64,000 nucleotides of DNA, taken from NCBI RefSeq assembly GCF_013315695.1, contig NZ_CP054353.1; one strand, written 5' to 3'. This document shows positions 7,607 to 62,446 of the stretch, piece by piece. Each line of letters opens with the position of its first letter. Within the stretch, counting starts at the first letter, position 1. The notes beneath the pieces are model-generated. The model was not told where the DNA came from. It searched no databases and saw only the letters and a list, made by a program, of their open reading frames with translations. Origin of the DNA: Escherichia coli. GTDB lineage: Bacteria > Pseudomonadota > Gammaproteobacteria > Enterobacterales > Enterobacteriaceae. The position numbers were made by a program, and so were the translations under genes.

Positions 7607-7788
7607 TTCGCACTCCTCAGATATCAGAAACTCCGCTCAAAGGATCTATGCTTCCTGCATGAGTGATCGGCCCGTTCGCCGATAACGATCTTCTTTCTTT
7701 AGCACGCTTTTTAGCAATTAATCTTGATGGAATTCTGACGAGAGCGAAAGAGGTAAGCCAGGTCGTACCCGACTTACCTGGAGGAGAT

Positions 7789-8679
7789 TTAATACTCGAG
7801 AATGCCGTGCGCGACGGGCAAATAGCGCAGAGAGAAATAGAGCGTGTCTTTACCGCAAGAGGAACGTTTCGCTAACAGCGAGGCAATTTCTGCGTCCGGT
7901 TTCGGTTTCGCTGTAAAGGTTTTGCCTTTGCCGGCGACAAACAGTTCATAAACAATGCCGCTTGCTGGGGCGGAGCTTTGGCAATCGGCGCTGGCCTGTA
8001 GATAACGTTCACGCTGTTCAGCGGTCAGTTTATCCACGCCGCTGCCATCCTGTACCCAGACATTAACGCCGGTTGCTTTAACGTGTTCCAGCAGTTGGCG
8101 ATAGCCATCGGGCGACATGTTTCCGGCGAAAAAACTACTGATATAAACCGGTTTTGCTGAAACATCGCTAATCAACCGCTGCGCGTTGTTTAACCATGTT
8201 AGCAAAGGCTGACGGGCGGCTTCGCTGCGCCAGTTCAGGTCGTCAATTTCCGCGCTGATGTACCAGCCATCCGGCGTTACGCCAGGTACGGCGCTCCATA
8301 ATCTGGCTTGCTGGAGATCGGCAGCCAGCAGGCGGTTAAGATAGCTTTCCAGCGCTGCAGACGACTGTTTCTGGTGCATAAAAAATTCCGGATCGGCATT
8401 CAGCCCGACAATCAGCTTCAGGCCAGCCTGTTGCGCAGCTGCGGCACGCTTAAACAATAACGCGCGCTGTTCTGGCTGGGTGAATGCATCGCCGTAACGA
8501 GTCCATTGCAAAACCAGGGTATCGAAGCCTTGCAAACGTAACTGACTCATCAGCCCCTGCCACTGGGTATCGGTAACCTGACTATCACGGTTTTGTGGTT
8601 GCCAGATAATACCTTTCATCGCAAAGGAAAAAGGGCTGACCAAAAGCAGTGTCAGCAATACGAAAATGAACTTACGCAT
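7789..8679 (-). CDS. ybcH: YbcH (DUF4434 periplasmic protein; third gene of the nfrBA-ybcH operon)
   Basis: 296-aa ORF with signal peptide, directly abutting the nfrA stop. Confidence 0.8.
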   Translation of the reverse strand: MRKFIFVLLTLLLVSPFSFAMKGIIWQPQNRDSQVTDTQWQGLMSQLRLQGFDTLVLQWTRYGDAFTQPEQRALLFKRAAAAQQAGLKLIVGLNADPEFFMHQKQSSAALESYLNRLLAADLQQARLWSAVPGVTPDGWYISAEIDDLNWRSEAARQPLLTWLNNAQRLISDVSAKPVYISSFFAGNMSPDGYRQLLEHVKATGVNVWVQDGSGVDKLTAEQRERYLQASADCQSSAPASGIVYELFVAGKGKTFTAKPKPDAEIASLLAKRSSCGKDTLYFSLRYLPVAHGILEY

Positions 8680-11652
8680 TTACCAGTGCACTCCAATGGT
8701 GAGAAACGCGTTGTTGCGCTCTCCGTTACGTTGATTAATCGCCTTAAAGGTATGTTGATACTCGACGCCGAGACTGACTTTGTGCGGCCAGGCGTCGTAG
8801 TGCGTCTCGCCGGTCCAGATATTCCAGCGGACCCCGACTCCGCCAAGCTGCGCGCCCTGAGTGCCTTTATCACGATAGCCGTTGTCCTGAACGTGAGCGT
8901 AAGGCTCAATAGTCTGTCCGTTAGCCACCTTCTGATGCCAGCTGACGCGATAATCTGCCGTCCACGCCTGAATATCCTGGCGGACATATTGCGCCGCATC
9001 GAGGTACAGGTTTTGGGCAAACCAGCCTGAACCGTTCGGGTGCCATTCGTCGCTGTATTTGCCGCCATTAAAGAATGAGGCGCTGGCGCGCAGCATGGTA
9101 TCGGATGCGCCATTTTGGCCGTTCAGCGGCAACTGCTGTTCGACGGCGAGGAAAAAGATCTGATCGCGCAGCGGCTTCCAGCGCAGACCGGTGCCGGACA
9201 TCGGATTTTTCACCGGCATCATCACCCCGTTTTCACCGGTATCGGCAAATACACGGCTGTAAACCGAGAGCAGGTCGCCTTCCAGCAGCATATTGCGTCC
9301 GATGCGGTACTCGGCTTCCAGTTGCCCGTAGCTACGATAGCTTTTCCCTGGCGCTGCGCCGCCGACATTATTGTTAGCGGTACTCATTGCGCCGGAACGC
9401 AAGCCGATAGAAGAATCGAAACTGAACGTCCAGCGGCGACCGACCTCCTCATGCAGACGGCGGAAATTGAAGCGTTGCTGATTTTGCTCTGGGGTCAGTG
9501 GGGTTATCAGCGCCTGATTATCAATGTCATCAATCACCAGCCGGGCGTAGTGCTGCGTCGCAGGCATGTCATCCAGACGCTGGTTCACGTAGGCCAGTTG
9601 TCGGATAAGTGCCGGATCGTCCGGTAGCCCTTTATGCGCCTGTTCGAGCATTTTCCGCGACTGTGCGATATCACCGCTATCCCACAAGGCGTAACCGAGC
9701 GCTGCCTGGGTGTTGCTATTATTCGGTTCCAGTTCCAGCGCGGCGCGCAAATCACTCACCGCCGCCGGGACATTATGACGTTGGCGATAAATTGTCGCCC
9801 GCGCAACGTAAGCGTTGGCAGAAGGCGCAATATTGATTGAGCGCGTGAGATCGTTCAGTGCGAGTTCCGGCTGACCAGGAATGTAACGTTGCGCATGCAG
9901 CCACCTGTAGAGGGCATTGTTTCCCAGCCCACGTTGTTCTGCCTGCTGAAGCCAGCGATCGCGAGCCGCACCATTTCCTGCCGCCTGGGCGGTATTGGCA
10001 GCAGCAAGCAGATCCTCATTGCTCATGTCGTGAAGACTGATTTTCTGCCAGGCCGCCAGTGCGGTGGCGTAGTCCTCAACCTGATACGCCTGATAGGCTA
10101 CCGCACGATGTTGCCAGGCGTTCGGTTGTCGTTGTTCGGCCTGAAGCCATGCATACAACGCCACACCGGGTAGCGTGTCCCGATAACACTTTGCCAGACG
10201 GTTCCAGGCGGCGGCATCGTAGGAAGGCGACATATCGCCCAGCAAGCGAACTATTGCCGGGCAATTATCTGCAATACCCGGCAACTGACTTTGCCACTGA
10301 CGTTGCTCCGCCAGCGGTAAGGGTTTCGATAAAATCGCCACCTTCGCCGGCGTTGCCAGGTAAGGATGACTTTCCAGCAGAGACGCCAGTTGCGCCATTA
10401 ACGTCTGGCTGACACGCGCATCGCCCTGGAAAGGATAGCGTTGCAGCAATAAATCGGCAGCTTCGCGTGACTGCTCGTTCTGCATCAGTTGCCAGGTCAG
10501 TTGATCCAGGCGGGTAAGATTTGCCGGTTCTTGCTGATACAGCAATCGTGCCAGACGCAGAGCTTCAGCCTTGTTATGGGTCGCTACGCTAACGGTATAA
10601 CGCTCCTCAAGCATTTCATTGGCGGGGAGGGTGGCGAGCAGTTTTTGCGCTGCGTCGTACTGACCTTCTTTTAACAGCACCGGTAGCGTCGCGCCAACAA
10701 CATACTGGCGGTTATCGGCAAACTGTACCGTATAATTCGCCAACGCCTGAACGGGGTTGACGCTGTATTTAGATAACAGATAGAGCCAACTTTTCTCTTG
10801 TGCGTCCGTGGTAAACAGCGGCTTATTTTCAATGAGATAACGCTGGAGGCGTGCTTTTTCGCCACGATAAGCCAGCGCGGTCGCGTAAGTAATATATGAC
10901 TGCGGATCGGTGAAGATCCCCTGTGATTGCAGCGCCAGGATCCGATCGTCCAGCTGCCCGGCAAGAAGCACATCAAACCACTGGCGGCGTTCTGCCGCGC
11001 TTAATGTGTTCTGCTGGCGTGCTTCATTGTATAGCGTATCTGCCTGGGACCATTGTTTCAGGTAGATTGCGCGTTGCAGCAGATCGGTTCGCAGCGTTTT
11101 TCCTTCCGGCGATGCAGCAAACGTCGCATCGTTTAGTTGCGCTCTGGCGACAGGTAATTGTGCCAGCCGCAGGGCATTCTGCCCGACTTCACTGCGACAA
11201 CGCAGGGTCGGCGCAGCATCGCACGCTTTTTGCTGGGCAAGCAGTTCTTCAACAGTCGTAACGCTTTTCACTTCAACTGGAATAGCCGCCAGACTGCGCT
11301 CAAGCCGGTCATCTCCTGGGTGACGTTTCAGTTGATCCTCAAGCAACAGCCGCGCCCGGTCATCATGACCAAAATGGCGATAGGCTTCCGCAAGGTATAA
11401 AGTTAGTGGAATATTATCCGGCACCTGTTGGTGTATATATTCAAATTCGCGGATGGCGGTTGCTTCGTCGTTATTTTTCTGTGCCTTCAGCGCCTTGTCG
11501 AGACGGGGATAAATAACGAAATGGCGATAATCGCTCAGCCCCAGCTCTTCTGCGCTGGTGCCGATATTGTCTGCGAGTGCGCTGGTACTCAATAAAGACG
11601 TCAGCAGTAAACCAGACCATCCGATGACGCGATTAAGGTTATTCTCCTTCAT
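8680..11652 (-). CDS. nfrA: NfrA, outer-membrane TPR protein required for phage N4 adsorption
   Basis: ORF track begins at a TTG. The recognisable N-terminus MKENNLNRVIGWSGLLL... starts at the ATG at 11652 and gives 990 aa. The C-terminal region is beta-barrel-like. Confidence 0.9.
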   Translation of the reverse strand: MKENNLNRVIGWSGLLLTSLLSTSALADNIGTSAEELGLSDYRHFVIYPRLDKALKAQKNNDEATAIREFEYIHQQVPDNIPLTLYLAEAYRHFGHDDRARLLLEDQLKRHPGDDRLERSLAAIPVEVKSVTTVEELLAQQKACDAAPTLRCRSEVGQNALRLAQLPVARAQLNDATFAASPEGKTLRTDLLQRAIYLKQWSQADTLYNEARQQNTLSAAERRQWFDVLLAGQLDDRILALQSQGIFTDPQSYITYATALAYRGEKARLQRYLIENKPLFTTDAQEKSWLYLLSKYSVNPVQALANYTVQFADNRQYVVGATLPVLLKEGQYDAAQKLLATLPANEMLEERYTVSVATHNKAEALRLARLLYQQEPANLTRLDQLTWQLMQNEQSREAADLLLQRYPFQGDARVSQTLMAQLASLLESHPYLATPAKVAILSKPLPLAEQRQWQSQLPGIADNCPAIVRLLGDMSPSYDAAAWNRLAKCYRDTLPGVALYAWLQAEQRQPNAWQHRAVAYQAYQVEDYATALAAWQKISLHDMSNEDLLAAANTAQAAGNGAARDRWLQQAEQRGLGNNALYRWLHAQRYIPGQPELALNDLTRSINIAPSANAYVARATIYRQRHNVPAAVSDLRAALELEPNNSNTQAALGYALWDSGDIAQSRKMLEQAHKGLPDDPALIRQLAYVNQRLDDMPATQHYARLVIDDIDNQALITPLTPEQNQQRFNFRRLHEEVGRRWTFSFDSSIGLRSGAMSTANNNVGGAAPGKSYRSYGQLEAEYRIGRNMLLEGDLLSVYSRVFADTGENGVMMPVKNPMSGTGLRWKPLRDQIFFLAVEQQLPLNGQNGASDTMLRASASFFNGGKYSDEWHPNGSGWFAQNLYLDAAQYVRQDIQAWTADYRVSWHQKVANGQTIEPYAHVQDNGYRDKGTQGAQLGGVGVRWNIWTGETHYDAWPHKVSLGVEYQHTFKAINQRNGERNNAFLTIGVHW

Positions 11653-13651
11653 TTTCGGACTCCAGTTGCGCAACCTGTTCTGTGTTTAAACCTGCTTTGA
11701 GTAATAGTGATTGCATCGAAACTTGTAATTCGCGTTGAATTGTCAGGACGCGATCCAACGTTTCCTGGCTGATAACGCCTTCGGTGACCAAAAACTTGCC
11801 GAGCGGCAGAGAACTGCGTTCATGGCGCAATAACAACACGTTAATTGCTGAACGATTAATATGACCGAGCGTGGTCAGTATTTCGGCGAACAGGAACTGA
11901 TGCGGCACATATTGCCGCCAGATTTCACCGGCCTGCTGTTCCGTGAGCCACTGATGCTGAACTGCATTGTACAACATTGCCCGCGGATCGTGACCGCGTC
12001 GGCGTGCATACCAGTGGCGTAATCCGGTGACAATTTGTCCCCGCAGAACAATGACGTAACGCACTTTGCGTCCGACTTTACGCGTCAGGGCCGCCAGCGA
12101 AACCGGGTCAATACCATCTTCACTGCCGACAATTAACTCATCATTGTCCAGACGCAGCGGCAGTACCGCATAATGCAGCGCCACGGAGGCCGGCATTTCG
12201 GCAATCAGCGAGGAAGGGATCTGCCAGGCATCGATGGATTCCCACGCCACTCGACGCGGATCGCCGTGTTGAAGTACCTGTTTTAACGCGCGCCAGTTGG
12301 CCATGAAGTTAATCAGGTTACCCCAGAAAAGACGCAGGACAGATAGCAGCCCCTGCGTCAGACCGTAGTAGCCAGTGACAAAAATCACCCGCTGCACGAT
12401 GCGGTTAACCATCAAACCAAAGTTTAGCCACAGCAGGGTCATTAACCATGCGCTGCCGCTGAAAATAGAAAGGAAATGCCAGGCATCGGGCCACAAACTT
12501 TCATACGCCAGTAACAGCAAAAGCTGGATCATCACCAGCATCGCGAGGAAGCTGACAAAGTTACTGATTGCCCCTTTGCGGTCGCGCCAGAGAAAGTAGT
12601 TCAGCGTCAGGCTGGAGGTCCATTTGTGGGTTTTAAAGCCCTGGAAAACAATGCCGATGATCCAGCGAGATTTTTGTCGAACCGCAGTCGAAAAGGTATC
12701 GGGGAAATATTCGCGCACGCAGATCATGTTTGACGTCCGTGCGTGCTGTAAAAATTTACGCTGCTCGCGTTCTTTGGCTTCGTCCACCACCGGAAAACGG
12801 ACAAAAATTTCCGTCATACCTTTTTCTTTCAGGCGGAAGCCAATATCGTAATCTTCAGTCAGACTCTGCACGTCGAAAGCAATACCGTCACCGTCAGCTA
12901 ACAGAGCGGTCACGGCGCGGCGGCTGAAACAGGTGCCGACGCCTGCGCTGGGCACTTGTCCGGCGAGGGCTTCACGCACCGGAACATCCTTGCCATGCAG
13001 TTCTGAAAACTCATCAATGTAAGTCATGCTGGTGAAGTGCGTCCATTCGCGTTCGAACGGATACACTGGGATCTGAATCAGATCTTTACGCTCGACCAGA
13101 TAGTTGAACAGACGCAATTCCATCGGTGAAATCACATCTTCGGCGTCATGCAGAATAAAACCAGCAAAAGCGAAATTGGCGCTACGTTCAAATTGGGTGA
13201 TGGCGTCCAGCACGTTGTTCAGACAGTCGGCTTTGCTGGTGGGGCCAGGACGCGCGCAGACTACCTTATGCACGTTCGGGAAGCGAGCGCACACTTCGTC
13301 AACATCACGCTGAGTATCGGGGTCGTTGGGGTAGGTGCCAACAAAGATATGATAGTTTTCGTAGTCGAGCGTGGTCGCCGCCAGCTCGGCCATATTGCCG
13401 ATGACGCCCGTTTCATTCCACGCCGGAACCATAATCGCTAACGGTTTTTCATCTGGTTTATACAGTTCGCGGTAACTCATTCGCGGGTAGCGGCGATAAA
13501 CACTCAACTTGCGTTTAATGCGGCGTACCCAGTAGACGACATCAATAAAAAAATCGTCCAGCCCGCTGATGAACATGATGACCGCTAACGTTATCGCGAT
13601 TACTTTTAAGCCGTAGAGCCAGGTAGCAAAAACATCAAGAAGCCAGTCCAC
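11639..13651 (-). CDS. nfrB: NfrB, inner-membrane family-2 glycosyltransferase with C-terminal MshEN-like c-di-GMP-binding region
   Basis: 670-aa ORF from a GTG start, with an in-frame stop 3 codons upstream. GT2 region (..AWNETGVIGNMAEL..DAED..) and C-terminal LPLGKFLVTEGVISQETLDRVLTIQ motif. Overlaps the nfrA start by 14 nt. Confidence 0.85.
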   Translation of the reverse strand: MDWLLDVFATWLYGLKVIAITLAVIMFISGLDDFFIDVVYWVRRIKRKLSVYRRYPRMSYRELYKPDEKPLAIMVPAWNETGVIGNMAELAATTLDYENYHIFVGTYPNDPDTQRDVDEVCARFPNVHKVVCARPGPTSKADCLNNVLDAITQFERSANFAFAGFILHDAEDVISPMELRLFNYLVERKDLIQIPVYPFEREWTHFTSMTYIDEFSELHGKDVPVREALAGQVPSAGVGTCFSRRAVTALLADGDGIAFDVQSLTEDYDIGFRLKEKGMTEIFVRFPVVDEAKEREQRKFLQHARTSNMICVREYFPDTFSTAVRQKSRWIIGIVFQGFKTHKWTSSLTLNYFLWRDRKGAISNFVSFLAMLVMIQLLLLLAYESLWPDAWHFLSIFSGSAWLMTLLWLNFGLMVNRIVQRVIFVTGYYGLTQGLLSVLRLFWGNLINFMANWRALKQVLQHGDPRRVAWESIDAWQIPSSLIAEMPASVALHYAVLPLRLDNDELIVGSEDGIDPVSLAALTRKVGRKVRYVIVLRGQIVTGLRHWYARRRGHDPRAMLYNAVQHQWLTEQQAGEIWRQYVPHQFLFAEILTTLGHINRSAINVLLLRHERSSLPLGKFLVTEGVISQETLDRVLTIQRELQVSMQSLLLKAGLNTEQVAQLESENEGE

Positions 13652-13800
13652 ACAAAAACCTTACATTAACGCTGGTTATGTTTAGGGTGGCGTATATTAA
13701 AGTTTTTTATGAATTGTGACAGCTTTTTATCATTAATAGGTATGACTATTGCGGCACGTTATTTTTACACTGGTTATAAAAGTTGCCGTTTGCTGAAGGA

Positions 13801-15243
13801 TTAAGCGGGTAATGTGATAACAAACCTTGTCCCCCGCGCATCCGACGTTACCGCAACCGTGCCTTTATGTGCGACAACAATCGATTTCACTATCGCCAGG
13901 CCAATGCCGCTACCTTCGCCTTTTCGCTGGCGGGAAGGATCAACGCGGTAGAAACGGTCAAACAATCGCGGTAAGTGTTCGGGCGCAATGGGCGTACCGG
14001 GGTTTTCGACGGAAACTTGCACCTGGTGATCGACCGTCTGGCAGCGCACAACAATTGCCTCTCCGGGTGGCGTATAACGCAGGGCGTTCGAAAGCAGGTT
14101 GCTTAACGCCCGACGCAACATCAGCGGATCGCCCGCAACCTGACACTCGTCACCAACAAACCGCAACTCCACGCCGCGATCTTCCGCTAACGCCTCGAAA
14201 AAATCGAACACTTTGCCGACTTCATCCGCCAGGTTGAGCATTTTCTTTTCGGGGATTAACTGGTTGTTATCGGCCTGGGCGAGAAACAACATATCGCTGA
14301 CCATTTTCGCCATTCGCGTCAGCTCTTCGAGATTAGAGTAGAGCACATCTTCCAGCTCCTTCTGGCTGCGCGACTGGCTGAGGGCGATTTCCGTTTGCGT
14401 TATGAGATTCGTAATTGGTGTACGAATTTCGTGGGCGATATCCGCTGAGAAATTGGACTGGCGGGTAAAGACATCCTCAATACGCTCGATCATATGGTTG
14501 AACGACAGCACCAGTTGTTCGAGTTCAATGGGCACGGTCTGTGGATCGAGGCGAACGTCGAGATCTTTCGAGGTGATATTCTGGATTTGACGGCTGACGC
14601 TGCGGATCGGCGCGTGACCTTTATGTACCGCCAACAGCACGATAAAGACGATCAGGATGCTGATTACCGATGCGGTCATTACAAGTTTATTCATCAAATC
14701 ATTTATGTAATGAAGATGAAAATCGATCGAAAGCGCAATGTAGAGCGTATAAATCGGTTTGCCGTCCACCAGTGGGCCAACCGGCAAGCTAATCATCCGC
14801 CAGTTGCTGTGTTCCATATGTCCGTGACCGTGGCCTGGCATCATCATTGTCGGGCCGGAAAGGAGATACACCTCGCCGCCCCGAGCGTCTTTATCGGGTA
14901 TGGCATCACGTGCAAACTCGCGGATATCGGGCGCGTCGGGGGAGTGATACACCGTTTTACCCAGGCTATCTGCCAGGGAGATCAACACATTGGAATAACC
15001 ACTGACAATATCTTCCAGCGTCATTAAGCGTCGGGCTTGCGTTTCGTCAGGGTGATTAAGTACCCGTTCAAGGGTGGCGCTAATCTCTTTTAAATCATTA
15101 ATATCCTGCTCGGCAAAATGCACTTTTACCGAGTGGATCATGATCCAGGCAAAGGCGAAAAACGCCGCGATGGTGGCCAGGCTAATAAAAAAGGTCAGGC
15201 GGGTTGCCAGCGAAAACGGGCGCTGAAACGGCTTACTGACCAT
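13801..15243 (-). CDS. cusS: Copper/silver sensor histidine kinase CusS
   Basis: N-terminus [16 protein letters not shown]..., HAMP and HisKA ([10 protein letters not shown]) then HATPase region. 480 aa from the internal ATG. Confidence 0.9.
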
Positions 15244-15916
15244 CCGGCACCTCAAGCATGTAACCCACGCCGCGCACGGTCTGAATCAGCTTCGGCTCAA
15301 AGTCGTTGTCGATTTTGCCGCGCAGCCGCTTCACCGCCACATCAATGGCGTTGGTATCGCTGTCGAAATTCATGTCCCACACCTGCGAGGCGATAAGCGA
15401 GCGGGGCAGCACTTCACCCTGATGGCGGAGGAAAAACTCCAGCAAAGTAAATTCTTTACTGGTCAACGTGATGCGCGTGCCGCTACGGGTGACTTTGCGG
15501 CTGACGAGATCGACCATCAAATCGGCAACCTGAAACTGACTTTCGATAATTACCGCCGCCCCGCGCCGCAGTAGAGTGCGCACCCGCGCCAGCAGTTCAG
15601 CAAAAGCGAACGGCTTCACCAGATAGTCATCCGCCCCCAACTCCAGCCCCTTGACGCGATGTTCAATGGTGCCAAGCGCGGTAAGCAACAGAATTGGCAT
15701 CCCTTTATTGGCGGAACGCAACATGCGCACGATATCCCAGCCGTTCACGTCCGGCAGCATAATATCGAGGATTATCAGATCATAATCACCGGTCATCGCC
15801 AGATGGTAGCCATTCAGCCCGTTGTCGGCCAAATCGACCACAAAACCGGCTTCGGTTAACCCTTTGGTCAAGTATTCTCCGGTTTTCTTTTCATCTTCGA
15901 CAATCAACAGTTTCAT
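15233..15916 (-). CDS. cusR: Response regulator CusR (OmpR family)
   Basis: 227 aa, [16 protein letters not shown]..., receiver plus winged-helix domain. Overlaps the cusS start. Confidence 0.95.
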
Positions 15917-15982
15917 ATTTCCTCCGCATGTTGCCCGGGCAATTCTAGAGTAGCGGGATCAGATGGCAATCGCTTATTGGCA

Positions 15983-16004
15983 AAATGACAATTTTGTCAT
16001 TTTC
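15983..16004. promoter_or_regulatory. CusR box in the cusR-cusC divergent promoter
   Basis: Perfect palindrome AAAATGACAATTTTGTCATTTT in the intergenic region. Confidence 0.65.
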
Positions 16005-16072
16005 CTGTCACCGGAAAATCAGAGCCTGGCGAGTAAAGTTGGCGGCATAAAATCACCAGAAATTATGAGCCT

Positions 16073-17455
16073 ATGTCTCCTTGTAAACTTCTGCCATTTT
16101 GTGTGGCCCTTGCGCTAACCGGTTGTTCACTGGCACCGGATTATCAGCGTCCGGCAATGCCCGTGCCGCAGCAGTTCTCACTCAGCCAGAACGGCCTGGT
16201 TAACGCAGCAGATAACTACCAGAACGCGGGCTGGCGCACCTTTTTTGTTGATAATCAGGTGAAGACGCTGATTAGCGAGGCGTTGGTGAATAACCGGGAT
16301 TTGCGCATGGCGGCGCTGAAAGTGCAGGAAGCGCGGGCGCAATATCGTCTGACCGATGCCGACCGCTACCCACAGCTCAATGGCGAGGGCAGCGGCAGCT
16401 GGAGCGGCAATCTTAAAGGCGATTCAGCCACGACGCGGGAGTTCTCGACTGGCCTTAACGCCAGCTTTGATCTCGATTTTTTCGGGCGCTTAAAGAACAT
16501 GAGCGAAGCCGAGCGCCAAAATTATTTAGCTACTGAGGAAGCTCAGCGCGCGGTGCATATTCTGCTGGTTTCTAATGTCGCGCAAAGCTATTTCAATCAG
16601 CAACTGGCGTATGCGCAATTGCAAATAGCCGAAGAAACGTTGCGTAATTATCAGCAGTCATATGCGTTTGTCGAAAAACAACTGTTGACCGGTAGCAGTA
16701 ATGTTCTGGCGCTGGAACAGGCTCGCGGGGTGATAGAAAGTACCCGCAGCGACATCGCTAAACGTCAGGGGGAACTGGCGCAGGCAAATAATGCATTGCA
16801 ACTGTTATTGGGAAGCTACGGCAAGCTGCCGCAAGCGCAGACAGTAAACAGCGACAGCCTGCGAAGCGTTAAATTACCGGCGGGCTTGTCGTCGCAAATC
16901 TTATTGCAGCGCCCGGATATTATGGAAGCTGAACACGGGTTAATGGCGGCTAATGCCAATATTGGCGCTGCACGCGCGGCATTTTTCCCGTCTATCAGCC
17001 TGACCAGCGGAATATCGACCGCCAGTAGCGATCTGTCGTCATTATTTAACGCCAGCAGCGGGATGTGGAATTTTATACCCAAAATTGAGATCCCCATTTT
17101 TAATGTCGGACGCAACCATGCCAATCTGGATATCGCCGAAATTCGCCAGCAGCAGTCGGTGGTGAATTATGAACAGAAAATCCAGAATGCCTTTAAAGAA
17201 GTGGCAGATGCGCTGGCATTACGTCAAAGCCTGAACGATCAAATCAGCGCCCAGCAGCGTTATCTGGCATCGCTGAAAATTACTTTGCAACGGGCGCGGG
17301 CATTATATCAGCACGGCGCAGTAAGTTATCTGGAAGTGCTGGATGCCGAGCGTTCTTTATTTGCAACCCGACAAACTTTACTCGACCTGAATTATGCCCG
17401 TCAGGTTAACGAAATTTCTTTATATGCCGCCTTAGGCGGCGGTTGGCACCAGTAA
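16073..17455 (+). CDS. cusC: Outer-membrane efflux channel CusC (lipoprotein)
   Basis: MSPCKLLPFCVALALTGCSL lipobox, OMF family. Confidence 0.9.
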   Translation: MSPCKLLPFCVALALTGCSLAPDYQRPAMPVPQQFSLSQNGLVNAADNYQNAGWRTFFVDNQVKTLISEALVNNRDLRMAALKVQEARAQYRLTDADRYPQLNGEGSGSWSGNLKGDSATTREFSTGLNASFDLDFFGRLKNMSEAERQNYLATEEAQRAVHILLVSNVAQSYFNQQLAYAQLQIAEETLRNYQQSYAFVEKQLLTGSSNVLALEQARGVIESTRSDIAKRQGELAQANNALQLLLGSYGKLPQAQTVNSDSLRSVKLPAGLSSQILLQRPDIMEAEHGLMAANANIGAARAAFFPSISLTSGISTASSDLSSLFNASSGMWNFIPKIEIPIFNVGRNHANLDIAEIRQQQSVVNYEQKIQNAFKEVADALALRQSLNDQISAQQRYLASLKITLQRARALYQHGAVSYLEVLDAERSLFATRQTLLDLNYARQVNEISLYAALGGGWHQ

Positions 17456-17478
17456 CTTTTAACTCCAGGAGAGAATAT

Positions 17479-17811
17479 ATGAGAAAAGCACTGCAAGTCG
17501 CAATGTTCAGTCTGTTTACCGTTATTGGCTTTAATGCCCAGGCTAACGAACATCATCATGAAACCATGAGCGAAGCACAACCACAGGTTATTAGCGCCAC
17601 TGGCGTGGTAAAAAGTATTGATCTGGAAAGCAAAAAAATCACCATACATCACGATCCGATTGCTGCCGTGAACTGGCCGGAGATGACCATGCGCTTTACC
17701 ATCACCCCGCAGACGAAAATGAGCGAAATTAAAACCGGCGACAAAGTGGCGTTTAATTTTGTCCAGCAGGGCAACCTTTCTTTATTACAGGATATTAACG
17801 TCAGCCAGTAA
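17479..17811 (+). CDS. cusF: Periplasmic copper chaperone CusF
   Basis: 110 aa from the internal ATG (MRKALQVAMFSLFTVIGFNAQA signal peptide). The ORF track over-extends the 5' end. Confidence 0.9.
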   Translation: MRKALQVAMFSLFTVIGFNAQANEHHHETMSEAQPQVISATGVVKSIDLESKKITIHHDPIAAVNWPEMTMRFTITPQTKMSEIKTGDKVAFNFVQQGNLSLLQDINVSQ

Positions 17812-17826
17812 CCCAGGTTTAATGAG

Positions 17827-19050
17827 ATGAAAAAAATCGCGCTTATTATCGGCAGCATGATCGTGGGCGGTATTATTTCTGCGGTAGGTTTTACCTGGTT
17901 TGCAAAGGCTGAACCGCCCGCAGAAAAAACGCCGACCGCAGAACGTAAAATCTTATTCTGGTACGACCCGATGTATCCCAATACGCGGTTCGATAAACCA
18001 GGTAAATCGCCGTTTATGGATATGGATCTGGTGCCGAAATATGCCGATGAAGAGAGTTCTGCGTCTGGTGTACGCATTGACCCGACCCAGACGCAGAATC
18101 TGGGGGTGAAAACGGCGACCGTCACGCGCGGGCCGCTGACTTTTGCCCAGAGTTTCCCGGCGAATGTCAGTTACAACGAGTATCAGTATGCCATTGTGCA
18201 GGCTCGCGCTGCCGGGTTTATCGATAAGGTGTATCCGCTTACCGTGGGCGATAAAGTACAAAAGGGCACACCGCTTCTCGACCTGACCATTCCCGACTGG
18301 GTGGAAGCGCAGAGTGAGTATTTACTGCTGCGCGAAACCGGCGGTACGGCGACCCAGACTGAAGGCATTCTTGAGCGGCTGAGACTGGCGGGAATGCCGG
18401 AGGCGGATATTCGCCGCCTGATCGCCACGCAAAAAATACAGACTCGCTTTACGCTCAAAGCGCCCATTGATGGCGTGATCACCGCGTTTGATCTGCGCGC
18501 GGGAATGAATATCGCCAAAGATAACGTGGTCGCGAAAATTCAGGGTATGGACCCGGTGTGGGTCACTGCTGCGATCCCGGAGTCCATCGCCTGGCTGGTG
18601 AAAGATGCCTCGCAGTTTACCCTCACCGTTCCGGCGCGACCGGATAAAACACTCACCATTCGCAAATGGACCCTGCTACCCGGCGTGGATGCCGCGACCC
18701 GCACGCTGCAACTGCGTCTGGAAGTCGACAACGCCGACGAGGCGCTAAAACCGGGCATGAACGCCTGGTTGCAACTCAATACCGCCAGCGAACCGATGCT
18801 GCTCATTCCGTCACAGGCGCTGATTGATACCGGCAACGAACAGCGGGTGATTACCGTTGATGCTGACGGGCGCTTTGTACCGAAACGCGTTGCCGTTTTC
18901 CAGGCATCGCAAGGCGTCACCGCGTTACGCTCTGGTCTGGCGGAAGGTGAAAAGGTGGTTTCCAGCGGCCTGTTCCTGATTGATTCTGAAGCCAATATTT
19001 CTGGCGCACTGGAGCGGATGCGCTCTGAAAGTGCTACCCATGCGCATTGA
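17827..19050 (+). CDS. cusB: Membrane fusion protein CusB
   Basis: 407 aa, MKKIALIIGSMIVGGIISAV... Confidence 0.9.
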   Translation: MKKIALIIGSMIVGGIISAVGFTWFAKAEPPAEKTPTAERKILFWYDPMYPNTRFDKPGKSPFMDMDLVPKYADEESSASGVRIDPTQTQNLGVKTATVTRGPLTFAQSFPANVSYNEYQYAIVQARAAGFIDKVYPLTVGDKVQKGTPLLDLTIPDWVEAQSEYLLLRETGGTATQTEGILERLRLAGMPEADIRRLIATQKIQTRFTLKAPIDGVITAFDLRAGMNIAKDNVVAKIQGMDPVWVTAAIPESIAWLVKDASQFTLTVPARPDKTLTIRKWTLLPGVDAATRTLQLRLEVDNADEALKPGMNAWLQLNTASEPMLLIPSQALIDTGNEQRVITVDADGRFVPKRVAVFQASQGVTALRSGLAEGEKVVSSGLFLIDSEANISGALERMRSESATHAH

Positions 19051-58308: not shown

Positions 58309-59055
58309 TTATTTATTCCCCATAATGATATTAAGCGTTTTCTGATCGGGCAACCCCACGGCCTGTTGCAGTGTATTTTCCTTACTCATGTAATAGATAG
58401 CTGGCGTGACATTTGCCCCCAGATCGTCCATCAGTTTCTCGTTATCGCTTAACACTTTCATTTGCTCTGTACTTACGTTTGCAGGCACGTTTAGCTTAAG
58501 CTTGCCACCAGAGGCTTCATATTCTTGCCAGGTTTTTGCGGGATCTTTGGAGGCAAGAATTGCCGCTGCTGTCGCCGGGCTTTCTGGCTTGATAACGCCA
58601 ACCAACAATGTTCTTAATTGCACTTTGCCAGAATCTACCCACGGGCGAGCCTGCTGCCAGAACTGTTTACAATATGGGCAGAACGGATCGGCGAAGACGT
58701 AGACAATGACCGGCGCGTCTTTTTTACCGTCGAGGAGCCAGTGGGATTGTTCCATCCGTTGCCACATTTCACGTCCGGCGGGTGCGTAAATTTCTTTTTC
58801 GATAAGCGTGTTACTCAGGTTTTCACCTTTTTCGTTGTACATGTAACCAGAGATAGCGTGCTTACCATCTGGAGTCAGGTAGATGGTGACGCCCATATCC
58901 TGATACTTACCGAGATAACCTTTCATTCCTCCAGGGGCATCGAACGTTTTGATGATTGTAATACCCTGTTTTTCAATCGCTTTTACTGGGGCAGGAAGTT
59001 CCTCTGCGAAGGCGGTTGCAGGAAGCAGGGCCAGTAAAAGTATCTTTTTTAACAT
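58309..59055 (-). CDS. dsbG: Periplasmic disulfide isomerase/chaperone DsbG
   Basis: 248 aa from [21 protein letters not shown] active site. Confidence 0.9.
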
Positions 59056-59115
59056 TAATTTGTCCTTTTCAGTCAGTGCAAAAGTCGAGTAAAAGGCATA
59101 ACCTATCACTGTCAT

Positions 59116-59426
59116 AGGTAAGAGCTTAGATCAGGTGATTGCCCTTTGTTTATGAGGGTGTTGTAATCCATGTCGTTGTTGCATTTGTAAAGGCAACACC
59201 TCAGCCTGCAGGCAGGCGCTGAAGATACCAAAGGGTAGTTCAGATTACACGGTCACCTGGAAAGGGGGCCATTTTACTTTTTATCGCCGCTGGCGGTGCA
59301 AAGTTCACAAAGTTGTCTTACGAAGGTTGTAAGGTAAAACTTATCGATTTGATAATGGAAACGCATTAGCCGAATCGGCAAAAATTGGTTACCTTACATC
59401 TCATCGAAAACACGGAGGAAGTATAG
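59116..59426. promoter_or_regulatory. dsbG-ahpC divergent promoter region (known OxyR-controlled in E. coli; binding site not mapped here)
   Basis: Intergenic region between divergent dsbG and ahpC. OxyR control is from established knowledge; the exact site was not resolved by eye. Confidence 0.4.
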
Positions 59427-59990
59427 ATGTCCTTGATTAACACCAAAATTAAACCTTTTAAAAACCAGGCATTCAAAAACGGCGAATTCATCGAAATCAC
59501 CGAAAAAGATACCGAAGGCCGCTGGAGCGTCTTCTTCTTCTACCCGGCTGACTTTACTTTCGTATGCCCGACCGAACTGGGTGACGTTGCTGACCACTAC
59601 GAAGAACTGCAGAAACTGGGCGTAGACGTATATGCAGTATCTACCGATACTCATTTCACCCACAAAGCATGGCACAGCAGCTCTGAAACCATCGCTAAAA
59701 TCAAATATGCGATGATCGGCGACCCGACTGGCGCCCTGACCCGTAACTTCGACAACATGCGTGAAGATGAAGGTCTGGCTGACCGTGCGACCTTCGTTGT
59801 TGACCCGCAGGGTATCATCCAGGCAATCGAAGTTACCGCTGAAGGCATTGGCCGTGACGCGTCTGACCTGCTGCGTAAAATCAAAGCAGCACAGTACGTA
59901 GCTTCTCACCCAGGTGAAGTTTGCCCGGCTAAATGGAAAGAAGGTGAAGCAACTCTGGCTCCGTCTCTGGACCTGGTTGGTAAAATCTAA
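59427..59990 (+). CDS. ahpC: Alkyl hydroperoxide reductase peroxiredoxin subunit AhpC
   Basis: 187 aa, [51 protein letters not shown]... Confidence 0.97.
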
Positions 59991-60010
59991 GTTCCGCAAT
60001 CGCGTAATTA

Positions 60011-60038
60011 ATCGGGTGCTGCGGCACCCGATTTTCTT
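60011..60038 (+). terminator. Hairpin with U-tract between ahpC and ahpF (partial terminator/attenuator)
   Basis: ATCGGGTGCTGCGGCACCCGAT followed by TTTTCTT. Confidence 0.5.
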
Positions 60039-60118
60039 CCCCGCACCATGATGCAAGCTGCATCCAGGTAGCCGCAGAGGCCGCTTGCATGATGATGTTT
60101 AAAGCCCAGGAGATAAAC

Positions 60119-61684
60119 ATGCTCGACACAAATATGAAAACTCAACTCAAGGCTTACCTTGAGAAATTGACCAAGCCTGTTGAGTTAATTGCCACGCTGG
60201 ATGACAGCGCTAAATCGGCAGAAATCAAGGAACTGTTGGCTGAAATCGCAGAACTGTCAGACAAAGTCACCTTTAAAGAAGATAACAGCTTGCCGGTGCG
60301 TAAGCCGTCTTTCCTGATCACTAACCCAGGTTCCAACCAGGGGCCACGTTTTGCAGGATCCCCGCTGGGCCACGAGTTCACCTCGCTGGTACTGGCGTTG
60401 CTGTGGACCGGTGGTCATCCGTCGAAAGAAGCGCAGTCACTGCTGGAGCAGATTCGCCATATTGACGGTGATTTTGAATTCGAAACCTATTACTCGCTCT
60501 CTTGCCACAACTGCCCGGACGTGGTGCAGGCGCTGAACCTGATGAGCGTACTGAACCCGCGCATCAAGCACACTGCAATTGACGGCGGCACCTTCCAGAA
60601 CGAAATCACCGATCGCAACGTGATGGGCGTTCCGGCAGTGTTCGTAAACGGGAAAGAGTTTGGTCAGGGCCGCATGACGTTGACTGAAATCGTTGCCAAA
60701 ATTGATACTGGTGCGGAAAAACGTGCGGCAGAAGAGCTGAACAAGCGTGATGCTTATGACGTATTAATCGTTGGTTCCGGCCCGGCGGGTGCAGCGGCAG
60801 CAATTTACTCCGCACGTAAAGGCATCCGTACCGGTCTGATGGGCGAACGTTTTGGTGGTCAGATCCTCGATACCGTTGATATCGAAAACTACATTTCTGT
60901 ACCGAAGACCGAAGGCCAGAAACTGGCAGGTGCGCTGAAAGTTCATGTTGATGAATACGACGTTGATGTGATCGACAGTCAGAGCGCGAGCAAACTGATC
61001 CCGGCAGCGGTTGAAGGCGGCCTGCATCAGATTGAAACAGCTTCTGGCGCGGTACTGAAAGCACGCAGCATTATCGTGGCGACCGGTGCAAAATGGCGCA
61101 ACATGAACGTTCCTGGCGAAGATCAGTATCGCACCAAAGGCGTGACCTACTGCCCGCACTGCGACGGCCCGCTGTTTAAAGGCAAACGCGTAGCGGTTAT
61201 CGGCGGCGGTAACTCCGGCGTGGAAGCGGCAATTGACCTGGCGGGTATCGTTGAGCACGTAACGCTGCTGGAATTTGCGCCAGAAATGAAAGCCGACCAG
61301 GTTCTGCAGGACAAACTGCGCAGCCTGAAAAACGTCGACATTATTCTGAATGCGCAAACCACGGAAGTGAAAGGCGACGGTAGCAAAGTCGTAGGTCTGG
61401 AATATCGCGATCGTGTCAGCGGCGATATTCACAACATCGAACTGGCCGGTATTTTCGTCCAGATTGGTCTGCTGCCGAACACCAACTGGCTGGAAGGCGC
61501 AGTCGAACGTAACCGCATGGGTGAGATTATCATTGATGCGAAATGTGAAACCAACGTCAAAGGCGTGTTCGCAGCGGGTGACTGTACGACGGTTCCTTAC
61601 AAGCAGATCATCATCGCCACTGGCGAAGGTGCCAAAGCCTCTCTGAGTGCTTTTGACTACCTGATTCGCACCAAAACTGCATAA
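60119..61684 (+). CDS. ahpF: Alkyl hydroperoxide reductase flavoprotein subunit AhpF
   Basis: 521 aa from [17 protein letters not shown]. CxxC motifs (CHNCPD; CPHCDGP), FAD/NAD-binding GSGPAG and GGGNSG. Confidence 0.95.
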
Positions 61685-61713
61685 GAAGAAGTAAGATTCA
61701 CCTGCAATTGCTT

Positions 61714-61746
61714 AGCCGCCGGGGTCAAACCTGGCGGCTTTTTTAT
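61714..61746 (+). terminator. Rho-independent terminator after ahpF
   Basis: AGCCGCCGGGGTCAAACCTGGCGGCT followed by TTTTTTATT. Confidence 0.65.
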
Positions 61747-61804
61747 TGCATTAAAAAGCCCTGCAGGGATGGCTCCGGGCAGGGCGGGATACTTATTCTG
61801 GCAA

Positions 61805-62233
61805 TTAACGCACAACCAGCACCGGCAAATTGGCGTGGCGGATCACGCTCGAGGCGTTAGAACCCAACAGATGAGTTGAAATCGATGGGTTACGCGAACC
61901 AATCACTACTACATCTGCATCAAGTTCTTTCGCTAACTCGTTAACTTCATCCCGCACACTACCAAAACGGACATGTTGCTTAATGCGGGAAGGATCGATG
62001 GTGAAGTGGCTGACCATCGTTTGCAGACGTTCTTCTGCTTCATGTTGCAGATGCTCTTCAAAACGACGTACATCAGCGGCAAAACGGTGCAGGCTCAGGC
62101 TGGCTGACCCCGGTAGTACGTGAAGTAGATGAATAACTCCGTCATCCTGGGCGAGGAATTCAGCGTGGCGAACCGCTTTGTCGCTCAATTCCATTTCGAA
62201 AACATCCACTGGCATGATGATTGTTTTGTACAT
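61805..62233 (-). CDS. uspG: Universal stress protein UspG
   Basis: 142 aa from [21 protein letters not shown]... Confidence 0.9.
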
Positions 62234-62356
62234 AAGCATTCTCTCCTTGTTTTTGCATGTATACATAACAGCACATTATTGGTTATGAATCTATGATTTG
62301 CGAGGCTGATTTGATCTGAATTTGCTATTGAGCTGGAAAATAAATAAAACCAGGCG

Positions 62357-62446
62357 CTACCAGCGTTGTTCAAGGTATAGCACTGCAGCAACAATAATTG
62401 CGGCTATGAATATATAAAATGCAGTGATACCGAGAGCTTCGCTCAT
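62357..62446 (-). CDS. Candidate 29-aa small hydrophobic protein (hypothetical)
   Basis: ATG-initiated ORF encoding MSEALGITAFYIFIAAIIVAAVLYLEQRW (single predicted TM helix), upstream of and co-oriented with uspG. No strong Shine-Dalgarno. Unverified. Confidence 0.25.
   Translation of the reverse strand: MSEALGITAFYIFIAAIIVAAVLYLEQRW

Follow-up and report, generated by a model that had tools for sequence, protein, structure and literature searches.

Few proteins of Escherichia coli are more abundant than AhpC and AhpF, which together form the main scavenger of low-level peroxide in this species. Since the AhpC decamer works with an AhpF dimer, the cell needs far more AhpC, and the question that this locus raises is how one promoter region could yield unequal messages for two neighbouring genes. 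We analysed a stretch of 64,000 nucleotides from the E. coli contig NZ_CP054353.1 (hereafter the window), in which a spacer of 128 bp separates the two genes. A reading made from the sequence alone (the sequence-only reading) had noticed two structured elements in the spacer, and proposed partial termination at the first and, possibly, structure-dependent control of ahpF translation by the second. Both elements are indeed present and were located as two hairpins (Table 1). Our answer, which we hold with good confidence, is that the spacer works as an RNA module of two parts, which uncouples the ahpC mRNA from the ahpF mRNA. It would show how one promoter region can supply unequal messages, with a leaky terminator as the first step and a cut by RNase III as the second.

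Table 1. Features of the ahpC-ahpF locus in window coordinates, with mean pairwise identities of the spacer elements
Feature	Position	Strand	Mean pairwise identity	Description	Source
ahpC	59427-59990	+		187 aa; stop codon TAA at 59988-59990	ORF list; annotation in 100%-identical E. coli genomes
ahpC-ahpF spacer	59991-60118			128 bp; ahpF ATG at 60119	
Hairpin 1, stem-loop at ahpC transcript end	60010-60033	+		arms 60010-60019 and 60024-60033; loop UGCG	
Hairpin 1 stems			81-98%		13-sequence alignment
Hairpin 1 loop			38%		13-sequence alignment
Interrupted U-tract after core stem	60031-60039	+		AUUUUCUUC; K-12 Term-seq 3′ ends at 60034 and 60036	
Hairpin 2, RNase III processing hairpin	60043-60098	+		5′ arm 60043-60064; variable apex 60065-60076; 3′ arm 60077-60098	
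Hairpin 2 lower 5′ arm			86%		13-sequence alignment
Hairpin 2 apex			55%		13-sequence alignment
Hairpin 2 lower 3′ arm			97%		13-sequence alignment
ahpF Shine-Dalgarno	60108-60112	+		AGGAG; start codon 6 nt downstream	read from sequence
ahpF	60119-61684	+		521 aa; MLDTNMK start	RefSeq annotation; N-terminus kept in 13 taxa
Operon-end terminator after ahpF	61714-61749	+		10-bp stem with 8 G-C pairs, then TTTTTTATT	terminator scan
Third codon positions, flanking ahpC and ahpF			69-73%		

Over the 401 bases around the spacer, the window matches many E. coli genomes at 100% identity, O157:H7 strains included. For comparison across taxa, 80 AhpC loci were taken from reference genomes and their ahpC-ahpF spacers were extracted, 22 of them from Enterobacterales; an alignment of 13 enterobacterial sequences covers both hairpins, and in it the GGA of the ahpF Shine-Dalgarno is invariant. 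The operon ends downstream of ahpF in a terminator with a fold of -22 kcal/mol (z = -4.4 against shuffles). On the other side of the operon, the gap between dsbG and ahpC holds a match to the Rfam family STnc70, an enterobacterial sRNA, at 59189-59282 on the plus strand (42.2 bits against a gathering score of 40, E = 2e-6). A K-12 Term-seq 3′ end at 638796 corresponds to 59278, the end of this match, 149 nt upstream of ahpC. The two observations suggest a short transcript or an attenuated leader upstream of ahpC.

Within E. coli the spacer occurs as three length alleles of 128 bp (the window), 170 bp and 244 bp (K-12), which account for very roughly 20%, 50% and 30% of an evenly spaced genome sample. 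The K-12 allele has an extra segment of 116 nt upstream of hairpin 1. This segment recurs as a dispersed repeat, at a median of 7 places per genome, and we take it to be ERIC, as it matches the ERIC1R and ERIC2 primer sequences at 20/22 and 21/22 positions. No copy of the ERIC-like segment was found in the 64 kb of the window. Because Citrobacter, Enterobacter and Superficieibacter share the same repeat at this site, the short alleles are probably deletions. The three alleles form a natural test of whether the upstream context alters the AhpC:AhpF ratio. From 60013 to the ahpF start, that is, over the core of hairpin 1 and the whole of hairpin 2, the window and K-12 MG1655 are identical, and two bases differ at the foot of hairpin 1. 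Every experimental result cited below comes from K-12, with the 116-nt ERIC repeat in its spacer. For E. coli, the literature search gave nothing directly useful on ahpC-only versus ahpCF transcripts or on an ERIC copy next to ahpC.

First, hairpin 1 shares features with intrinsic terminators. The sequence-only reading had placed a GC-rich hairpin with a short U-tract at 60011-60038, and this was confirmed with the stem-loop starting one base earlier and an interrupted U-tract behind it. The stem of 10 bp is GC-rich and 100% complementary. It consists of a conserved core, CGGGUGC-UGCG-GCACCCG (60013-60030), which is lengthened in the window by AAU/AUU pairs. None of 200 dinucleotide shuffles was as stable as its fold of -18.3 kcal/mol (z = -5.5), and the 7-bp G/C-rich core provides the stable stem-loop that an intrinsic terminator has. 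The U-tract is weak. The 3′ flank of the stem reads UUUUCUUCC, with TTTTCTTCC directly after the 3′ arm; counted from the core stem, the tract (AUUUUCUUC) has 6 U in 9 positions and a longest run of 4, and the A-U pairs of the full 10-bp stem consume part of it. The consensus terminator scan of the window left hairpin 1 unflagged. Another E. coli allele (locus L004), with an 8-bp stem, the same core and the tail TTTTCTTC, passes the same terminator rule.

The core of hairpin 1 is present in 13/13 aligned sequences and in most of the 22 Enterobacterales spacers, including those of Pantoea, Providencia, Brenneria and Arsenophonus; in a few, such as those of Erwinia and Enterobacter sp. Ag1, the same site holds a terminator-like hairpin whose stem is a variant. 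Tracts of U6-U8 follow the hairpin in Pantoea, Brenneria and Arsenophonus, which have the same core, and in Erwinia, which has a variant stem, all without hairpin 2. The longest U-run after hairpin 1 averages 3.6 in spacers with hairpin 2 versus 5.6 in those without, with overlapping ranges and phylogenetically non-independent samples. By a simple rule, terminator-like hairpins were found in 40 of 67 ahpC-ahpF spacers across Proteobacteria. Those beyond Enterobacterales include spacers of Pseudomonas, Comamonadaceae, Snodgrassella, Marinobacter and others (loci L025-L082). Since such hairpins are common outside Enterobacterales, this operon may be built in general with a transcript end close to ahpC.

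A transcript end at this place has been mapped in K-12. Curated Term-seq 3′ ends lie at 639668, 639670 and 639668 across three conditions (LB at OD 0.4, LB at OD 2.0, and M63 glucose), with scores of 7,690-17,950 (Adams et al., 2021; PMC7815308, Supplementary file 1). In the window they fall on U-tract positions 3-5 after hairpin 1, so that in vivo, behind a core of identical sequence, the RNA ends inside the U-tract. For MG1655 6394xx-6399xx the tables of the same study give neither a further curated 3′ end nor a Rho-termination region, and the adjacent rows contain no plus-strand curated 3′ end before 643497, which leaves the ahpF terminator without one (PMC7815308). Partial termination at hairpin 1 giving an ahpC-only RNA, as the sequence-only reading had proposed, is supported by this strong 3′ end seen in all three conditions and by the conservation of the hairpin throughout Enterobacterales. 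It also agrees with the U-runs, which tend to be longer where hairpin 2 is lacking and the ahpF ribosome-binding site lies ~20 nt downstream.

Hairpin 2 is a longer and less regular structure. It had been described as a second imperfect palindrome at about 60047-60110; its quoted arms, CATGATGCAAGC (60047-60058) and GCTTGCATGATG (60083-60094), were found as described, but the helix ends at 60098 rather than near 60110. Of 22 helix positions, 18 are paired and 4 are single mismatches, and an inverted-repeat search returned arms of 21 nt with 81% complementarity. This imperfect duplex thus has the length expected of an RNase III substrate, which is about two turns of the helix, or at least 20 positions. 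The fold of -23 kcal/mol is modest alone (z = -2.0; 6/200 shuffles equally stable), and folding of the whole spacer gave z = -2.65. An Rfam scan of 59000-62400 with E up to 10 returned no credible family in the spacer; rncO, the sole match there, was rejected as chance level (19.4 bits against a gathering score of 43, E = 0.39).

Cleavage at this hairpin by RNase III is documented in K-12. Gordon, Cameron and Pfleger (2017) compared RNA-seq coverage between the wild type and an rnc deletion, and their mBio paper ranks the ahpC-ahpF gap second among new RNase III sites, at MG1655 639695 (PMC5371410). At this position, 4 reads from the wild type stand against 3,598 from the rnc mutant, and both replicates gave a ratio of 900 (PMC5371410). 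The peak lies 58 nt upstream of the ahpF start at 639753, which is 60061 in the window, on the upper 5′ side of hairpin 2. Thus, in that data set, coverage is lost in an rnc-dependent manner at the apex of a hairpin whose sequence is identical in the window. RNase III cleavage in vitro was scored 'Y' for the ahpFC template, which was the whole K-12 spacer including the ERIC hairpin (PMC5371410); the assignment of the cut to hairpin 2 therefore depends on the in vivo peak coordinate. In the same source, the half-life of ahpC mRNA is given as ~14 min in the wild type and ~6 min in the rnc mutant, and that of ahpF as unchanged (PMC5371410). The authors propose there that the hairpin left at the ahpC 3′ end blocks exonucleases (PMC5371410). 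A later paper lists ahpC among the positively regulated targets of RNase III, by a mechanism that "has not been elucidated".

These data raise the question of how the ahpC 3′ end arises, since a Term-seq end alone does not separate termination from exonuclease trimming after an RNase III cut. All polymerases might read through a hairpin 1 that is no terminator, with RNase III cutting hairpin 2 and 3′ exonucleases trimming the product back to hairpin 1 as a barrier. The interrupted U-tract (UUUUCUUCC) and the silence of the consensus scan would fit this, as would the exonuclease-blocking hairpins proposed 3′ of ahpC by Gordon et al. (PMC5371410). So would the wild-type coverage of the hairpin 2 apex, nearly nil at 4 vs 3,598 reads, which indicates that read-through RNA is efficiently processed. 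Against it, orthologous hairpins without hairpin 2 bear canonical U6-U8 tracts just before the ahpF ribosome-binding site, the mapped 3′ end at U3-U5 is typical of intrinsic termination, and terminator-like hairpins between ahpC and ahpF are frequent in other Proteobacteria. We therefore consider an origin by processing alone rather unlikely. From the U6-U8 tracts without hairpin 2, the position of the end inside the U-tract and the 40 terminator-like spacers in Proteobacteria, we infer that the end arises partly by termination. The best-supported reading is that most transcripts stop at hairpin 1, or at the very least that the hairpin marks where the stable ahpC mRNA ends.

The distribution of hairpin 2 is much narrower than that of hairpin 1. 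It was found only in the 13 aligned sequences, from Escherichia, E. albertii, Citrobacter, Enterobacter, Leclercia, Superficieibacter and related MAGs. Because the distance from the terminator to the ahpF ATG is 84-92 nt in this group, and ~20-28 nt in most spacers without hairpin 2, the hairpin looks like a lineage-specific insertion of ~65 nt that separated the ahpF ribosome-binding site from a terminator of older date. That the clade which gained hairpin 2 also has shorter terminator U-runs hints at co-evolution of read-through and processing. A dispersed repeat of the ERIC, REP or BoxC type, or a mobile element, was considered as its identity and rejected, as hairpin 2 is single-copy in E. 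coli (5,421 of the 5,426 complete genomes have it, each at one place). It is absent from the other 5. In one E. coli DH5alpha sequence (locus L003, NZ_CP045741.1), a deletion equivalent to 60027-60133 takes away the 3′ arm of hairpin 1, hairpin 2, the Shine-Dalgarno and the first five codons of ahpF, which is annotated there from an internal ATG; either a true mutation that arose in the laboratory or a fault of the assembly could account for this.

Where it is present, the helix is maintained. Standard pairs fill 96.3% of the pair cells in the 13 enterobacterial sequences, versus 28-46% when the 3′ partners are slid. Compensatory change is seen at 2 pairs only; with most stem positions invariant, there is little covariation to be had. 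The contrast with the slid controls and the two compensatory pairs therefore indicate a maintained structure, with conservation rather than covariation as the main support. The apex varies in both length and sequence among taxa, the E. coli variants inspected have their substitutions confined to it, and the segment 3′ of the hairpin is poorly conserved (63% and 47% identity). Pairing of the 5′ arm of hairpin 1 with the apex of hairpin 2 was also considered and rejected: the apex is unconserved, and as the partner sits downstream of the terminator, an antiterminator role can be discarded.

Strong conservation of both half-sites with little covariation would also be expected if the palindrome acted as DNA, either by binding a dimeric regulator as its operator or by serving ahpF as a promoter inside the operon. 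However, the spacing between the arms changes from 12 to ~20 nt among taxa, which is a misfit with a protein site of fixed geometry, and in K-12 it is the RNA of this region that RNase III cleaves (PMC5371410). Moreover, the consensus promoter scan found no sigma-70-like site in 59991-60118, and an internal ahpF promoter is therefore unsupported. We regard a role at the DNA level as highly improbable, and an RNA element that is cut by RNase III as the better description of hairpin 2. Inside ahpC, the same kind of search gave a weak sigma-70-like match at 59854-59881 on the plus strand (GTGACG-16-TAAAAT, 9/12), ~110 nt before the stop codon; the number of such matches in the region is near chance (5 found vs 3.0 expected).

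The second proposal of the sequence-only reading, that the palindrome overlaps the ahpF ribosome-binding region and so could control ahpF translation, does not hold up well. The helix ends 10 nt before the Shine-Dalgarno, which lies outside it and is mostly unpaired, with an unpaired probability of 0.57-0.80 in partition-function folds of the full region, of the RNA after the terminator and of RNAs that start inside the 3′ arm. Unlike in an operator that sequesters the ribosome-binding site, neither the Shine-Dalgarno nor the start codon is paired in hairpin 2. Shuffles do as well as the small AUGUUUA/UAAACAU stem that covers the ribosome-binding site in the minimum-energy fold (z = -0.5), and the sequence of this stem is poorly conserved, so that a sequestering mini-hairpin at 60095-60121 was rejected as neither significant nor conserved. 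Occlusion or exposure of the ribosome-binding region by hairpin 2 could still be argued from the position of the 3′ arm, which ends inside the roughly -20 footprint of an initiating ribosome, and from its conservation (97% vs 86% for the 5′ arm, with no compensating changes), which might point to a separate role in the ahpF leader. This must be set against the open Shine-Dalgarno, the weak stem in the AUG region and the low conservation (63% and 47%) of the segment behind the hairpin. The role published for K-12 is RNase III processing that stabilises ahpC mRNA with ahpF stability unchanged (PMC5371410). Translational control by hairpin 2 is thus quite improbable, and processing remains the preferred role.

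The 3′ arm deserves a separate comment. In the 5′ arm, substitutions disrupt pairs without any compensation, and the 3′ arm is nearly invariant, an asymmetry that goes beyond what pairing by itself demands. Since the 3′ arm stays on the processed ahpF mRNA as its 5′ leader, it may carry an added signal, and we put forward, tentatively and with only a small chance of being right, that GCUUGCAUGAUGAUGUUU (60083-60100) has a second, sequence-specific job in the processed ahpF mRNA. If so, AhpF output could be set by the AUG triplets or the AU-rich stretch of this arm, acting as a signal for ribosome standby or recruitment, or else as a target of RNase E or of an sRNA. The conserved AUGAUGAUG (60089-60097) might instead start an N-terminally extended AhpF or a regulatory upstream ORF. 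An ORF at 60089-61684 is in frame with ahpF and would encode 531 aa instead of 521 aa. Among the 13 taxa, however, the triplets occur in all three frames relative to ahpF, and the resulting peptides range from 4 aa to out-of-frame overlaps. The sole SD-like motif upstream, AGAGG at 60076-60080, is only partly conserved. An upstream start therefore merits very little credence, and the annotated start is kept. The window itself has three in-frame ATG codons upstream of ahpF in 60089-60118, a mechanical extension of 10 aa that is unconserved outside Escherichia.

We propose the following course of events for the module. Hairpin 1 with its interrupted U-tract would act as a leaky intrinsic terminator, at which many transcripts stop and become monocistronic ahpC mRNA with a protective 3′ hairpin. 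Polymerases that read through would make hairpin 2, an imperfect duplex of ~22 positions, of which RNase III would cut both strands. The upstream product is presumably trimmed by 3′ exonucleases to hairpin 1, to give the same stable ahpC mRNA, the longer half-life of which in the presence of RNase III is an observation in K-12. The downstream product would be an ahpF mRNA that starts in the 3′ arm, ~20-40 nt before the start codon, with an open ribosome-binding site. The net effect expected is far more ahpC message than ahpF message from one OxyR-controlled promoter region, and we infer a corresponding effect on the protein ratio.

How does this compare with known systems? Both hairpins are already explained by the published K-12 data, and the element is known there; as the spacer has been mapped in K-12, the finding adds little. 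What is new is modest, namely that hairpin 2 would be a clade-specific insertion behind an order-wide terminator, and that the spacer has three length alleles in E. coli. The closest counterpart is the K-12 RNase III site itself, where 639695 corresponds to 60061 in the upper stem of a hairpin 2 of identical sequence (PMC5371410). The difference is in the spacer, which is 244 bp with ERIC in K-12 and 128 bp without it in the window, so the published measurements belong to the K-12 allele. A second counterpart is the leaky terminator inside an operon, such as the internal terminator of sdhCDAB-sucABCD (Conway, 2014). Here too a GC-rich hairpin and a U-tract lie between co-transcribed genes, an abundant 3′ end falls in the U-tract, and the promoter scan detects no promoter for the downstream gene; the ahpC U-tract, by contrast, is interrupted, and its mapped end may partly come from trimmed processed RNA. 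By analogy, the same logic of ratio setting would also apply to the ahpC-ahpF spacers of other Proteobacteria. Finally, in the early mRNAs of phage T7, RNase III cleavage parts cistrons and raises the stability of the upstream message, on which it leaves a stabilising 3′ hairpin (reviewed in PMC9032294). The operon resembles them in the parting of cistrons and the gain in stability, but the structure that protects ahpC mRNA is probably a separate hairpin upstream, hairpin 1, and not a remnant of the cleaved helix.
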